From an uncultured Candidatus Saccharibacteria bacterium (lineage in GTDB: Bacteria; Patescibacteriota; Minisyncoccia; Phycocordibacterales; CALRHW01): 54,008 nt of DNA. Below the pieces are notes generated by a model. That model had not been told where the DNA came from, did not search any database, and worked only from the letters and a program-made list of their open reading frames with translations. The stretch covers positions 230,273 through 284,280 of the forward strand of contig CAYOUG010000001.1 of assembly GCA_964407105.1 (NCBI GenBank), given 5' to 3'. A program made the translations under genes and the position numbers. Position 1 is the first letter of the stretch. Each line of letters starts with the position of its first letter. Of the stretch, positions 41,751 to 54,008 are shown one piece after another.

Positions 41751-41900
41751 AAGGACTTTACAATTGTCCCTTTACGTTCTATAATGGACATATTCAAAAT
41801 CTTTAAAAAGTCCTTGATATATAACAGACATTAAATCAGGGACAATAAAAGACAAAAACATGGACGAAAAAATAGATAAAAATACCAATTCAGGACAAGA
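41751..41900. promoter_or_regulatory. Array of (G/A)GAC(A/T)-core motifs in both orientations in the ftsK / HTH-gene divergent spacer
   Basis: AAGGACTT, TTGTCCCT, TGGACAT, AAGTCCTT, CAGACAT, AGGGACAA, AAGACAA, TGGACGA, AGGACAA within ~150 bp. Confidence 0.5.
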
Positions 41901-42756
41901 GAAAAGCTCTAATTCTGGAAAAGAACTAGATAATACAAACCTTTTTAGTCATCTTGGTATATCAGACAAAAACTTTCTATTTCAGTATAAAAAGACAGAA
42001 AAGATACTTGCGGCACTTTATCTTGTTACAAATTTTTTACCAAACCAAGAACCCTTGAGATGGGAAGTACGTGAGTTGGGATTGAATCTTCTTTCGAGTG
42101 TAATGTCTTTGAAAGATGCATTACCATCACAAAAAGATGAGTTGTGCACAATGATCAAAACAATTGTTCTTGAGATGATTTCTTTGTTAGAAATTGCATA
42201 TTTTGCTGGTTTTATTTCTGCGATGAATTTCGAGGTTCTTAAAGGAGAATTTGTTGTTTTACTTGGATCTGTTTCTGTTACAAAACAATCGCTTGAATCA
42301 TTTGTATTACCCAATAATTTCTTTGTTGATAACACTTCTATATCTGGAGGCAATTCGATATCTACTGATTATTCACGTGCACCACTTGCGGATAATTTTG
42401 ACCGATCAATACGTGCCAACAATATAAAAGACAATTCATTTATTGGTGTATCAACATTATCAAAAAATAATTCTTCACAAAATTTTCATAAAGGACAGAA
42501 TAATAAAAAAACGGCCACCCCCAATATCTTTTCAGAAAAGAAAACATACGGCTCTGTTCTTATAAAAAAGACCAGTAGACAGACGGTTATTATTGATCTT
42601 TTAAAAAAGAAAAAAGAGATCATGATAAAGGACGTTTCTGCTGTTATAAAAAACTGTAGTGAGAAAACACTACAACGCGAACTTCTTTCTATGGTAGAAC
42701 AGGGTATCCTAAAAAAAGAAGGTGAGCGTCGTTGGAGCAAGTATTCTCTTGCATAA
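41860..42756 (+). CDS. Hypothetical protein: N-terminal helical bundle, low-complexity linker, C-terminal DeoR-like winged HTH
   Basis: RQTVIIDLLKKKKEIMIKDVSAVIKNCSEKTLQRELLSMVEQGILKKEGERRWSKY. Confidence 0.8.
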   Translation: MDEKIDKNTNSGQEKSSNSGKELDNTNLFSHLGISDKNFLFQYKKTEKILAALYLVTNFLPNQEPLRWEVRELGLNLLSSVMSLKDALPSQKDELCTMIKTIVLEMISLLEIAYFAGFISAMNFEVLKGEFVVLLGSVSVTKQSLESFVLPNNFFVDNTSISGGNSISTDYSRAPLADNFDRSIRANNIKDNSFIGVSTLSKNNSSQNFHKGQNNKKTATPNIFSEKKTYGSVLIKKTSRQTVIIDLLKKKKEIMIKDVSAVIKNCSEKTLQRELLSMVEQGILKKEGERRWSKYSLA

Positions 42757-42759
42757 TCG

Positions 42760-42789
42760 TTGACTTTTAGCCTATTTTTAGCATATAAT
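42760..42789 (+). promoter_or_regulatory. Near-consensus sigma70 promoter heading the long S-layer leader
   Basis: TTGACT-N18-TATAAT. Confidence 0.6.
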
Positions 42790-43340
42790 CGCTTGGCCTG
42801 GTTGGAGATAGCTTAGGTTATCCCCAGCCGTTGTTTTGCAGGTTATTTAAGGAAAAGGTACTATGTACATTATACGTAACCAGTAGTGTTGACATAGTGT
42901 CAAATACTACTGATTGTGTATGTTTCCGAGTGTAAGAATAACGGCTGTTTTGCGTCTCATTACAGGAAGACAGACCAGGTATTGATCGTTGACAATTTCA
43001 TATACAAAAAAGAGAGATTTATGTGCGTATAGGATGCTGTACGACTTTTTACTTATATGGAAGTATGACTGAAAATCAGACCAAATTTCTATAACTAGCC
43101 CGCCGCCTTGCGTCGGTTTACCTCCGAGTCTACTTTGTTGGACGAAGAGTCTAAATTAAGGTGGTGGTTAGTGGAAGGATTCATAAACAAGAAATTGTTT
43201 ATGAATCAAACACTTGTATTAATAAACGTTAATTAATACGAATATTAATACAAGTGTGTGCATTACATTATAAAAAATAATTTCTTTTCCTGAATACATT
43301 ATTAATAATTAAGGAAAAGATGTTCATTATTAAATACAAT

Positions 43341-45323
43341 ATGTTTAAAACATCAAAAACTGCACGAGTTTTTGCAGGAGTTGTTGGTATCGCGATGGTT
43401 GTTGTTGCTTTTGGCGCATTTGTTGCACCAGTAAAGGCAGAAACGACTGATCTCGCAGCACTTCAAGCACTAGTTGCTTCATTGCAAGCTCAGATTGCAG
43501 CATTATCAGGCGGATCAAGTTCTACAGTTTCTGGATCAGCTCCTATGTCTCCCCTTACAGAAGGAAGCTCAGGTGCTGAAGTTACAAAACTTCAGAATTT
43601 CTTGATCTCAAAAGGCTTTGGCATTTCAGCTGGAGCTACAGGATTCTTTGGTGGTCAAACAAAGGCGGCTCTTGCGGCTTTCCAAGCAGCAAACGGAGTT
43701 TCACCTGCAGTTGGTTACTACGGTTCAGTTACAATGGCTAAAGTTGCATCAATGATGACAACTACAACCACTACAACTACAACCACAACTACAACCACAC
43801 CAGGTCCTACAACACTTGAAGGAACAGATGGTTCAATTTCTGACGTAAATGTTCTTTCACAATACTCAAACGAGGAAGTGGGAGATGCAGAATCAGATGT
43901 AAAAGTTGCTGGATTTGAAGTTGAAGCTTCAAAAGATGGAGACATTATGTTGAAATCTGTAAAACTTCATTTTGCTGGAGCATCAAATTCTGGCTCAACA
44001 AAATTGGCTGATTATGTAGATTCAGTATCTGTATGGATGGGATCAACAAAGATCGCTACTGTAGATGTATCTGACTTCAACAAAGACAGTACAGGAGTAT
44101 ACACAAAAACAGCTACATTAAAGAGTGGTGTTGTTGTAAAAGCTGATACCACAGAAAAGTTTTACATTACTGTAGATGCTATTAGTAATCTCGATTCAAA
44201 TGATATTACTGGAGATGCATGGACCGTTGATGTTGACAATATCCGATACGAAGATGGATCAGGTGTAACAACAACTGATACTGATTCAGGAGATGTTAAC
44301 GCTATGAACGTTTCGATAAACTTTGTAAGCTTCTCAACATCTGCTAACACAGAATTGAAGTTCTCTACAGATTCATCAAACAATCCTGATGCTGGTGTTA
44401 TCGTTGTCGATGATACAGACAATACAGACGGAGTTGTTCTAATGGCTGGTAAGATCAAAGTGGAAGGAACATCAGATGTGTGGATGGATGCATTACCAGT
44501 TACCTTTGTAACTACCGGTGGTGCAAATCTTTCTGCTGTTACTGGATCAGTAACATTGAATATCGGTGGTGAAGAATATTCAGAGACCACTGGCGCAAAC
44601 TGTAGTCCAACTTGTGCTTCAAACACAACAGCTACAGTAACATTCGATAATCTTGATTTCACAATGGATGCTGGAAAAACTGTAAGTTTTACAGTTTCTG
44701 CTGACATCAATGATATTGACGCTGGAAATCTTGATGAAGGAGATACTTTGGCTGCTTCTATTACTACAAACAACCGAAATTACATTGATGCGGAAAATTC
44801 AGAGGGTGATCAGTTGTCTGATTCTACAGAGAAATCTGGAACAGTTACTGGTAATGCTCAAATATTCCGAACAAGTGGAATTCAGTTGGAGTTTGTTGAT
44901 GCAACTGAAGATGCTACTGTTGGTACAAGTGCAAATGATGACGTGGGATTGTTTACAATCAAATTTAAAGTAACAGCTATTGGAGACACAGTTTATATTG
45001 CTTCAGCTGTTGCAAACGGTGCTACTTATTCTGTTGACAAGAGTGGAACAGCTACAACTGCAAACTCAATTACAGCAGCATTTGTAAATAATTCTGACAC
45101 TGATTTGACAACTACATACGGTCTATGGGAGATCGAAGAAGGTTCAAGTGAAACACTTACACTTTCTGTAAGCGTTCCATTGGGAGCAGGAGGTACATCA
45201 GGACAGTATCGCGCAGCTCTTACGGGAGTATTGTGGGGTACAAATTCTGCTGATGCTCAACCAGACAATACTTACTCATCAAATCTCGATACGTTCAAGA
45301 CCTCTTACATGGTTCTTAACTAA
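43341..45323 (+). CDS. S-layer-like secreted protein with peptidoglycan-binding domain and poly-Thr linker
   Basis: Signal peptide (VKA/E), LQALVASLQAQIAAL coil, LTEGSSGAEVTKLQNFL...FFGGQTKAALAAFQ PG-binding domain, Thr14, then T/S/D/V-rich beta domains. Confidence 0.8.
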   Translation: MFKTSKTARVFAGVVGIAMVVVAFGAFVAPVKAETTDLAALQALVASLQAQIAALSGGSSSTVSGSAPMSPLTEGSSGAEVTKLQNFLISKGFGISAGATGFFGGQTKAALAAFQAANGVSPAVGYYGSVTMAKVASMMTTTTTTTTTTTTTTPGPTTLEGTDGSISDVNVLSQYSNEEVGDAESDVKVAGFEVEASKDGDIMLKSVKLHFAGASNSGSTKLADYVDSVSVWMGSTKIATVDVSDFNKDSTGVYTKTATLKSGVVVKADTTEKFYITVDAISNLDSNDITGDAWTVDVDNIRYEDGSGVTTTDTDSGDVNAMNVSINFVSFSTSANTELKFSTDSSNNPDAGVIVVDDTDNTDGVVLMAGKIKVEGTSDVWMDALPVTFVTTGGANLSAVTGSVTLNIGGEEYSETTGANCSPTCASNTTATVTFDNLDFTMDAGKTVSFTVSADINDIDAGNLDEGDTLAASITTNNRNYIDAENSEGDQLSDSTEKSGTVTGNAQIFRTSGIQLEFVDATEDATVGTSANDDVGLFTIKFKVTAIGDTVYIASAVANGATYSVDKSGTATTANSITAAFVNNSDTDLTTTYGLWEIEEGSSETLTLSVSVPLGAGGTSGQYRAALTGVLWGTNSADAQPDNTYSSNLDTFKTSYMVLN

Positions 45324-45352
45324 TCTTGGTTTGACAGCGTAAGCTGTTGACT

Positions 45353-45390
45353 AAAACAAAAACCGCCCTTTATGGGGCGGTTTTTGTTTT
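45353..45390 (+). terminator. Strong intrinsic terminator
   Basis: AAAACAAAAACCGCCC-TTTATG-GGGCGGTTTTTGTTTT. Confidence 0.88.
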
Positions 45391-45428
45391 GCTTGAAAAA
45401 CTCATACATTTGAGATAATCTGTAGCAT

Positions 45429-49532: not shown

Positions 49533-49541
49533 TTATCCACA
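49533..49541 (+). promoter_or_regulatory. Single consensus DnaA box
   Basis: TTATCCACA in intergenic DNA upstream of a TGA-TATAAT promoter. Confidence 0.45.
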
Positions 49542-52369: not shown

Positions 52370-52397
52370 TTGACAGAAAAATAGATATCTATATACT
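52370..52397 (+). promoter_or_regulatory. Sigma70 promoter upstream of 23S rRNA leader
   Basis: TTGACA-N16-TATACT. Confidence 0.6.
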
Positions 52398-52809
52398 GTT
52401 ATTTATCTCTGATATGTATACATTACTTAATCCTTCAACAAAGCGGAAACGATAACGTTTTTTAAACTGTTGTCGCAAGCCGCCTTCAAGCGGTTTTTTT
52501 GTTAAAATCGCAAAGAATTAAGAAAAGTGCAGAATCAGAAAGTCATTTGTAAAATATCACGACGGTCGTTAGATTTTTGTGATCATGTTATTTCACATCC
52601 GTTTTCTGAGGTCTTAGTGATGTGAAAATAATCGTACGTATTGCGTTGATAGTATCAGCGTGATGCGTGCAGTTTGTTGTGATCGAAAACAGCAAACTTA
52701 AAAACAGAAAAAATCTTTGTTATGTGTGATCTTGATTACATGTAACAGAGTAAAAAGAATTATCGCTCGTTGTAAGCGAGCGATAAAGATTGTGGTTTTT
52801 AAATTTCCT

Positions 52810-54008
<1,199 letters not shown>

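Follow-up and report, generated by a model that had tools for sequence, protein, structure and literature searches.

A predicted boxA-containing control region and structured leader upstream of a secreted surface-protein gene in an order of the Patescibacteria

The DNA considered here, hereafter the window, is a stretch of 54,008 nt from the forward strand of contig CAYOUG010000001.1 (assembly GCA_964407105.1; C1:230273-284280) of an uncultured Candidatus Saccharibacteria bacterium, an ultra-small member of the Patescibacteria whose genome (G000) is 631 kb long and 99.65% complete. Between the gene of a winged helix-turn-helix (wHTH) protein and that of a secreted surface protein lies an intergenic region of 563-584 nt (42757-43340), the features of which are all given on the + strand. 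With moderate confidence, we interpret this region as a control region followed by a cis-acting leader, which would recruit Nus factors for processive transcription of a highly structured untranslated RNA and whose hairpins would bind a further factor. An earlier note on this DNA had proposed a structured leader of ~550 nt; the region is indeed conserved, structured and non-coding, but comparison with relatives indicates that it is not one fold and that its first ~110 nt are promoter DNA. Elements of a known kind (promoter, DnaA box and boxA) appear to cover approximately the first 250 nt (42760-43003).

The most conserved block of the leader is GAUCGUUGACAAUUUCAUA (42984..43003), a predicted NusB/S10 binding site which, as judged from its sequence, is a boxA of the rRNA type. 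The DNA 3' of the wHTH gene was read in 67 loci from many families, and in nearly all of these a long gap is followed by a homologous secreted protein with the same N-terminus. The boxA consensus, G-w-w-C-n-U-U-G-A-m-A-A-y-n-n-A-A-U-A, is present as a strict pattern in 58 of 66 leaders. The window copy reads GAUCGUUGACAA, and within the order consensus G-w-w-C-n-UUGA-m-AA the positions G1, C4, T6, T7, A9 and A11 are invariant in 47-50 of 50 leaders. Across the order, the element is situated at a median of 101 nt 3' of the -10 element; in the window it lies ~110 nt into the leader and ~340 nt 5' of the ATG. It falls inside a contig from an RNA run (42867-43297), 3' of the conserved -10, the transcription start itself being predicted. 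The short boxA pattern is not enriched genome-wide, with 20 occurrences observed against 23.6 expected (631 kb, both strands), and its presence in nearly every leader is therefore not due to chance.

The same element is found in the rRNA leaders of the order. The organism's own 16S leader consists of a promoter and a hairpin followed by UGUUCUUUGAAAUAUUGAAC, and among 30 16S leaders of the order the consensus is matched strictly in 21 and with one mismatch in 28. Furthermore, 16S leaders and mRNA leaders share a 3' extension of boxA, for example GAUCUUUGAAAAUUGAAUAG. The published gamma-proteobacterial consensus, GYTCTTTAANA, depends critically on C4 and T6 for its function (PMC5725501), and the order boxA fits it at G1, C4, T6, T7, A9 and A11. 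The conserved second TTGACA of the relatives (42990-42995), overlooked in the earlier note, is the core of this boxA and provides the leader with a concrete mechanism. A reading of the TTGACA in the boxA block as a promoter -35 was rejected, as the relatives have no -10 at 16-18 nt. As regards the rRNA genes themselves, 16S and 23S (window 52372-52810; G000 C6:12150-12406) each have their own sigma-70-type promoter and leader, and hence the two genes appear to be unlinked; the 16S leader displays the hairpin-boxA arrangement, the 23S leader a weak boxA-like stretch only.

Genes for two Nus factors were located by tblastn, namely nusB at C2:41058-41447 (E = 2e-17) and nusG at C1:245025-245537 (E = 1e-40), S10 being outside this search. 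A tblastn search for Rho in this genome was negative, and Pfam Rho_RNA_bind scored above its cut-off in none of 61 genomes of the order, with nine control genomes positive.

Upstream of boxA, the order-wide layout is that of a promoter: TTATCCACA, which we take to be the classical DnaA-box consensus, is followed after 6-8 nt by a -35-like TTGCAG or TTTGCA and, 17-18 nt further on, by a -10. A box (with at most one mismatch) and a -10 situated 29-33 nt apart were found in 61 of 66 syntenic loci. Among them, 52 have TTATCCACA without a mismatch and 48 of the 61 have a perfect TATAAT as the -10; TTGCAG, with 20 loci, is the commonest -35. In the window, the DnaA-box-like site is TTATCCCCA (42818..42826; TTATCCACA in relatives), located 9 nt 5' of the -35 of a promoter that we designate P2 (42836..42864), with TTGCAG at 42836-42841, an N17 spacer and TACTAT at 42859-42864. 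In view of the recurrence of box and -10 in 61 of 66 loci, the conserved blocks at 42818-42866 are best read as promoter DNA, with the main start at ~42871. The predicted leader is thus ~470 nt long, and the distance from -10 to ATG across the order has a median of 464 nt. A DnaA-box-like site beside the -35 defines a promoter architecture that had not been annotated.

The promoter reported in the earlier note, TTGACT-N18-TATAAT after the wHTH gene, is present at 42760..42789 with 11 of 12 consensus matches (P1, sigma-70-type). Its conservation was traced within the genus, where the -10 (TATAAT, TATAGT or an extended TGnTATAGT) is kept in 8 of 8 members and the -35 in 5 of 8. Retention of the P1 -10 throughout the genus suggests tandem promoters, and the multiple promoters foreseen in the note are probably two, P1 and P2. 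A start just after P1 (~42796), as the note had it, gives way to the predicted main start at ~42871, and 42760-42866 can be regarded, on this comparison, as mostly promoter DNA. A sigma-54-type reading of TTGCA was discarded, since there is no GG element at -24 (by eye) and TATAAT stands at sigma-70 spacing.

The same 9-mer, TTATCCACA, also occurs beside dnaA at the GC-skew minimum (C1, ~205.5 kb), and the box at the leader is plausibly read by DnaA. An origin of replication (oriC) was considered and rejected: the locus has a single box, no 600-bp window on C1 contains at least four, and the skew minimum and dnaA lie at ~205 kb, as compared to ~273 kb for the locus. With dnaA and the skew minimum ~68 kb away, the locus is therefore not the origin. 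Elsewhere in the genome, TTATCCACA also stands just 5' of -35/-10-like elements at C1:175841(-), C1:80745(-), C1:112255(-), C4:27788(-), C4:5916(+), C4:37250(-) and window position 49533 (C1:279805). The genes behind these additional boxes include a type IV pilin-like gene, secA, and membrane-protein and sensor kinase genes, which suggests a small envelope-related regulon using TTATCCACA.

The 5' end of the predicted transcript folds into a hairpin (42871..42922; minimum free energy (MFE) -20.9 kcal/mol) that contains a TTGACA...TGTCAA palindrome; the hairpin differs in length from species to species. At this position, six of eight genus members have a hairpin of 4-22 bp with a differing sequence. 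A hairpin around a second TTGACA had been proposed in the earlier note, and it is borne out at 42872-42921: in a strain of ~98% identity, the five substitutions within this segment preserve pairs, create pairs or fall in the loop, and the variant hairpin, at -25.1 kcal/mol, is 4 kcal/mol better than that of the window. Between this hairpin and boxA are the genus-conserved blocks UGUAAGAA and CGUCU..UACAGGAAGRCUGAC (42931..42975), identified as conserved columns of the eight-sequence alignment and partly recognizable outside the genus; they include a small GUCU/AGRC hairpin with a AUACAGGA loop just 5' of boxA. On the other side, 23 nt 3' of boxA, a terminator scan returned the terminator-like hairpin CGUAUAGGAUGCUGUACG followed by ACUUUUUACU (43026..43053). 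The U-rich block (G)ACUUUUUCC is kept in the genus, the hairpin itself being weaker in relatives. Further 3', a UCAGACC block (43076..43082) lies 5' of the hairpin motif described next, and A(A/U)UCAGACYAA recurs in many families ~15-25 nt before the AACUA flank of that motif. The MFE folds obtained for the 5' half from single sequences are not consistent from one species to the next, and hence we claim no consensus structure for 42923-43092.

The 3' part of the leader contains what we term the GYGUCGAU hairpin (43093..43176). It is composed of AACUA, a long stem, UUG(U/C)GUCG(A/G)U, an optional inner hairpin (43117-43157 in the window), AUUAA, the returning strand of the stem and UAGUGGAA. 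A model iterated over the syntenic loci yielded 28 instances across families, in which AACUA, a stem of 10-14 bp of unrelated sequences, UUG(U/C)GUCGAU, an insert of 0-54 nt, AUG/AUUAA, the returning strand and UAGUGAAA follow one another. The G-U-rich stem CUAGCCCGCCGCCUU/AAGGUGGUGGUUAG with its inner domain, drawn in the earlier note, corresponds to this motif (43095-43171): within the genus the domain has 26 pairs, nine of which are compensated (RNAalifold and pair counts). Across the 28 loci, 85.7% of cells are paired, as against 67.5% in shuffles and 40-52% with a slid partner, and both sides change in 16 of 18 pairs, the alignment having been fitted to the model, a procedure that favours pairing. 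The same hairpin is nonetheless returned in each family when single sequences are folded independently. The motif occurs as one copy per genome. The possibility of a boxC-like rRNA-leader element was rejected, because GYGUCGA is found in none of the 30 16S leaders of the order.

Two further hairpins follow. H2 (43210..43257), the 15-bp hairpin of the earlier note, is conserved, with 14 pairs of which 12 are compensated in the genus. The loop that caps H2 in relatives is NGUCGAA(A), and all 26 occurrences of NGUCGAA in other leaders stand at a hairpin apex, most of them 85-215 nt upstream of the ATG. Counted over 45 leaders, GTGTCGA is present in 19 (0.6 expected) and GTCGAAA also in 19 (1.4 expected). 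UCGA is self-complementary, and the two loops may therefore contact each other or share a protein partner. To judge by Rfam 15 and the searched literature, both the GYGUCGAU and the GUCGAA-capped hairpins are new, and a new covarying hairpin motif of this kind could join RNA family libraries. The GAAA-capped hairpin that the note had placed between these two (H1, 43177..43207, 13-14 bp) is present in the window, but varies between species; at its position, relatives possess unrelated hairpins (GCAA or ACAA loops) or none.

The leader closes with H3 (43284..43319), a CUUUUCC/GGAAAAG hairpin that pairs a purine tract. It has eight pairs, one of them compensated (CUUUCCC/GGGAAAG), and its loop holds AUUAUUAAUAA. 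Pyrimidine/purine hairpins with a AAAUUAUUA loop recur in other families, and ATTATTA (AAAUUAUUA), present in 31 of 45 leaders compared to 7.2 expected, is situated both in the H3 loop and before the start codon. There, a conserved A/U-rich tract, AUGUUCAUUAUUAAAUACAAU (43320..43340), precedes the gene without a nearby Shine-Dalgarno sequence. The protein alignment with relatives begins M-x-x-K-T-S-K-T-A-K, for which reason the likely start is the ATG at 43341 and not that at 43320. The block GUUCAUUAUUA is conserved while its frame is not, a stop preceding it in G004 and the block being out of frame in G001 and G005; it is therefore conserved as nucleotides and not as protein. Small open reading frames (ORFs) in the leader were dismissed for the same variation in frame, and for indels that are not multiples of three. 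In the window the ATG at 43320 is in frame with the gene, and its equivalent in two relatives (L022/L023) opens a nine-codon upstream ORF that overlaps the real start (ATGA).

Conservation and covariation in homologous leaders, which the earlier note had named as the means of checking its proposal, were both found. All seven other species of the genus possess one syntenic copy, at ~70% identity, and in the resulting alignment of eight sequences near-invariant blocks alternate with helices that vary in sequence and length. The 563-nt intergenic stretch has an MFE of -167.7 kcal/mol (z = -6.7 versus shuffles), in a fold that includes every hairpin named in the earlier note. The opposite strand gives the same z-score at a weaker energy (-136.2 kcal/mol), and the advantage of 31 kcal/mol for the + strand is as expected if G-U pairs matter on that strand. 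A covariance model of the 3' domain found a single weak match outside the genus, in the same gene context. A covariance-model search of 400 class-level genomes (~11 candidates scored per genome) gave one extra match, in a genome of another order (G461). At that locus (L225) the plan recurs, with TTATCCACA, a spacing of 4 nt to TTGACT, and a -10 ahead of a long leader and a secreted protein; the leader has a related long hairpin with the loop GUGUUA..., and the upstream gene differs from the wHTH gene. A pattern scan of metagenomes returned one truncated locus (L026), and a contig scan with a degenerate boxA pattern returned ~120 chance matches and one genus member, the pattern being too loose.

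The absence of a matching riboswitch class, already reported in the earlier note, is borne out by Rfam, which returned no match in the window at the gathering score and chance-level matches only at E up to 10 (42600-43500); the families weighed were riboswitches, 6S, signal recognition particle (SRP) RNA, RNase P, tmRNA, OLE, ROOL, GOLLD, raiA, HEARO and EAR. A missing housekeeping RNA was rejected, as RNase P RNA (C4:14837-15181) and tmRNA (C1:106482-106887) are located elsewhere and the shape is unlike 6S. The SRP RNA and 6S models had no match anywhere in the genome.

RNA data touch the region in one wastewater metatranscriptome, in which a contig covers 42867-43297 at a depth of 6.1, with neighbouring coding pieces at 5-15. 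In this run there is no coverage at 42790-42866 and a gap at 43298-43673. The contig is compatible with initiation at P2 and with joint expression of leader and gene, for both of which it is weak evidence. The region was not found in any of the other RNA runs.

From conservation, covariation and the identity of the motif with that of the 16S leaders, we infer a series of events in which each binding event, the transcription start and the regulatory outcome are predicted. Transcription would proceed from two sigma-70-type promoters, of which P2 (start ~42871) is conserved across the order, and DnaA or a factor of the same specificity would probably modulate P2 via TTATCCACA. The 5'-terminal stem-loop would probably guard against 5'-end-dependent decay. 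Once transcribed, boxA would be bound by NusB/S10, which is predicted to place the polymerase in the processive, pause- and terminator-resistant form known from rRNA operons. So modified, the polymerase would read through the hairpin-rich, ribosome-free leader, including 43026-43053, into the ~2-kb gene. As Rho is absent order-wide, the role would therefore be one of anti-pausing, anti-intrinsic-termination or assistance in RNA folding, and not an anti-Rho role. The GUCGA-loop hairpins (43093-43176, and H2 in most relatives) would most likely serve as docking sites for an RNA-binding factor or engage in a UCGA/UCGA loop-loop contact, and the conserved hairpins would give stability and a docking site for a regulator. 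Finally, the pairing of the purine tract by H3 before a start that has no Shine-Dalgarno sequence suggests control of translation initiation.

A number of points weigh against this interpretation. Compared with the E. coli consensus, the order boxA has G for A at position 8, as do many other bacteria, and in this genus also a deviating G at position 5. The GYGUCGAU hairpin was detected in 28 of 69 loci only, and the H2 loop of the window is without GUCGA, having diverged to AACGUUAAUUAAUACGAA where relatives have NGUCGAA(A). P1 may also fire, which would place the P2 region inside some transcripts. The sole RNA evidence is a single low-depth metatranscriptome, seen as contigs that carry no direction and may contain DNA, and its contig starts 3 nt after the -10, which is nearer than a typical start. 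Moreover, the downstream protein is no more than a candidate S-layer protein, with a signal peptide and PG_binding_1.

A bolder proposal, tentative and in our view possible rather than likely, is that the GYGUCGAU and NGUCGAA hairpins together constitute a new, order-specific leader RNA module. It would act through a dedicated protein or through UCGA/UCGA kissing to provide feedback on surface-protein synthesis, in concert with the Nus-modified complex.

Alternatively, the structured part (~42871-43260) might be a stable, stand-alone non-coding RNA (ncRNA) that acts in trans as a protein sponge or scaffold, the gene being expressed separately or by read-through. The earlier note had left the choice between such an RNA and a cis-regulatory one unsettled. 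A conserved, multi-domain structure with covariation would suit a stand-alone RNA, as would an rRNA-like boxA, which is typical of stable RNA genes, an RNA contig that ends at 43297 before the coding sequence (gap 43298-43673), and the negative 6S search, which leaves a 6S-type role without a detected occupant. The terminator scan of the + strand, however, gave nothing terminator-like from 43053 up to the gene, and inspection by eye revealed no conserved promoter in the DNA that separates RNA and ORF. In every case the element is found directly 5' of the same gene and on the same strand, and conservation is unbroken through H3 to the start codon. In addition, the depth of the contig does not exceed that of coding sequence, and the shape is not the 6S rod with a central bubble. 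We therefore favour the cis leader and consider a separate ncRNA unlikely.

A leader that acts as a sensor, whether riboswitch, thermosensor or protein-dependent attenuator, with the GYGUCGAU or the 43026-43053 hairpin switching between terminating and read-through folds, seems to us quite unlikely. There is indeed a terminator-like hairpin with a U-tract 3' of boxA, loop nucleotides are highly conserved in covarying stems, and H3 can mask the purine tract near the start. Yet no Rfam riboswitch was matched even at E up to 10, and the conserved hairpin tolerates loop inserts of 0-54 nt, as would not be expected of a compact ligand pocket. Nor did any conserved alternative pairing come to light, and the 5' half has a different MFE fold from one species to another.

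The earlier note had also implied a single RNA of ~550 nt that starts from P1 (~42796), and this is now very unlikely, being largely refuted by comparison. The closing pairings (42797/42974 and 42825/42947) do appear in the MFE fold of the window and the P1 -10 is kept in the genus. However, the nested pairs specified in the note, CCTGGT(42797)/ACCAGG(42974) and CAGCCGTTG(42825)/TAACGGCTG(42939), hold in no more than 16 of 36 cells (44%) and 19 of 54 cells (35%), respectively, among seven genus relatives, approximately the level of chance. They also straddle the conserved promoter P2, such that the enclosed segment is an order-wide promoter, and 42790-42866 is without coverage in the one RNA run. 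Least credible of all is a reading in which nothing but DNA sites is conserved (operators, or the DnaA boxes of an origin-like region) and there is no functional RNA, for although the perfect DnaA-box consensus and the promoter elements would explain the first 110 nt and the adjacent wHTH gene could supply a DNA-binding regulator, each locus has a single box, dnaA and the GC-skew minimum are ~68 kb away, the G-U pairs are strand-specific with a + fold 31 kcal/mol better, and compensatory changes in three helices would be unexplained.

The favoured boxA leader may be compared with systems already known. With the rRNA antitermination complex rrnTAC (NusB, NusE/S10, NusA, NusG and SuhB) it shares the element and the consensus present in the 16S leaders of the order. 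As in rRNA leaders, boxA lies ~100 nt after a strong promoter, in what is predicted to be transcribed DNA, with hairpins before it and a long structured untranslated RNA after it. In contrast to rRNA leaders, the target here is a protein-coding gene in a Rho-less lineage, and boxA is accompanied by a DnaA-box-like site and by hairpins that are missing from the 16S leaders (0 of 30). BoxA elements also occur upstream of CRISPR arrays. In the 5' untranslated region of E. coli suhB, a BoxA beside the ribosome-binding site has a repressive effect on translation and favours termination by Rho (Baniulyte et al. 2017, PMC5725501), and many more non-rRNA BoxA targets have been predicted, including sites >50 nt from the start codon (PMC5725501). 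The present element resembles that of suhB in lying outside rRNA and in the predicted action of Nus factors on a non-rRNA transcript. It differs in being ~340 nt from the ATG of a surface-protein gene, in an organism without Rho, and the expected outcome is read-through, not repression.

Genes of S-layer proteins (slpA of Lactobacillus and of Thermus, vapA of Aeromonas) have long 5' leaders of ~60-200 nt and multiple promoters; boxA is not known from such leaders. The leader described here similarly combines a long untranslated segment, a 5'-terminal hairpin and tandem promoters with a surface-protein gene (the product of which is a candidate S-layer protein), but is distinguished by its ~470 nt, its several covarying domains and its boxA. 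Processive antitermination RNAs are exemplified by EAR of the Bacillus eps operons, which is in Rfam, and put of phage HK022. These too are structured leader RNAs, which make the polymerase terminator-resistant and are linked to envelope or exopolysaccharide genes, whereas here there is no Rfam match, and a classical boxA takes the place of an RNA fold that binds the polymerase.

If our interpretation is true, an rRNA antitermination signal has been reused on a protein-coding gene across an order of Patescibacteria that lacks Rho. The usual account of non-rRNA boxA, which is that of Rho control, cannot apply in such an order, and non-Rho functions of the Nus factors (speed, anti-pausing and RNA folding) would become testable on an mRNA. 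With these elements it would also be possible to annotate, in hundreds of uncultured genomes, an envelope gene that is probably the one expressed most strongly.

The gene on the 5' side (41860-42756) encodes a protein of 298 amino acids with a weak C-terminal DeoR-type HTH (the wHTH, residues 240-286) and the C-terminus ...GERRWSKYSLA. It was found in 365 of 401 genomes of the order and lies directly 5' of the leader in nearly all loci read, which makes its product a candidate dedicated regulator of the leader locus. The downstream gene (43341..45323) encodes the secreted surface protein, with a signal peptide, a coiled segment, a PG_binding_1 domain (PF01471, E = 7.8e-9) and a Thr-rich linker.

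Ffh and FtsY (SRP54-type GTPases) were not found by tblastn and a motif search in this genome, in which SecA is present, and Pfam PF00448 gave short P-loop matches only in 61 genomes of the order, with 14 of 14 controls positive. This suggests an order-wide loss of the SRP pathway, and without Ffh and FtsY no SRP RNA would be expected. More speculatively, in an order without Ffh, FtsY and SRP RNA, the leader may assist in bringing the mRNA of the main secreted protein to the membrane. Lastly, where the surface-protein gene is separated from the Wzy_C/TPR gene that follows it, ~40 nt (window 45352-45392) are matched by several short contigs from three runs, which continue into unrelated sequence; the piece appears to be a short element that other organisms or loci also possess.

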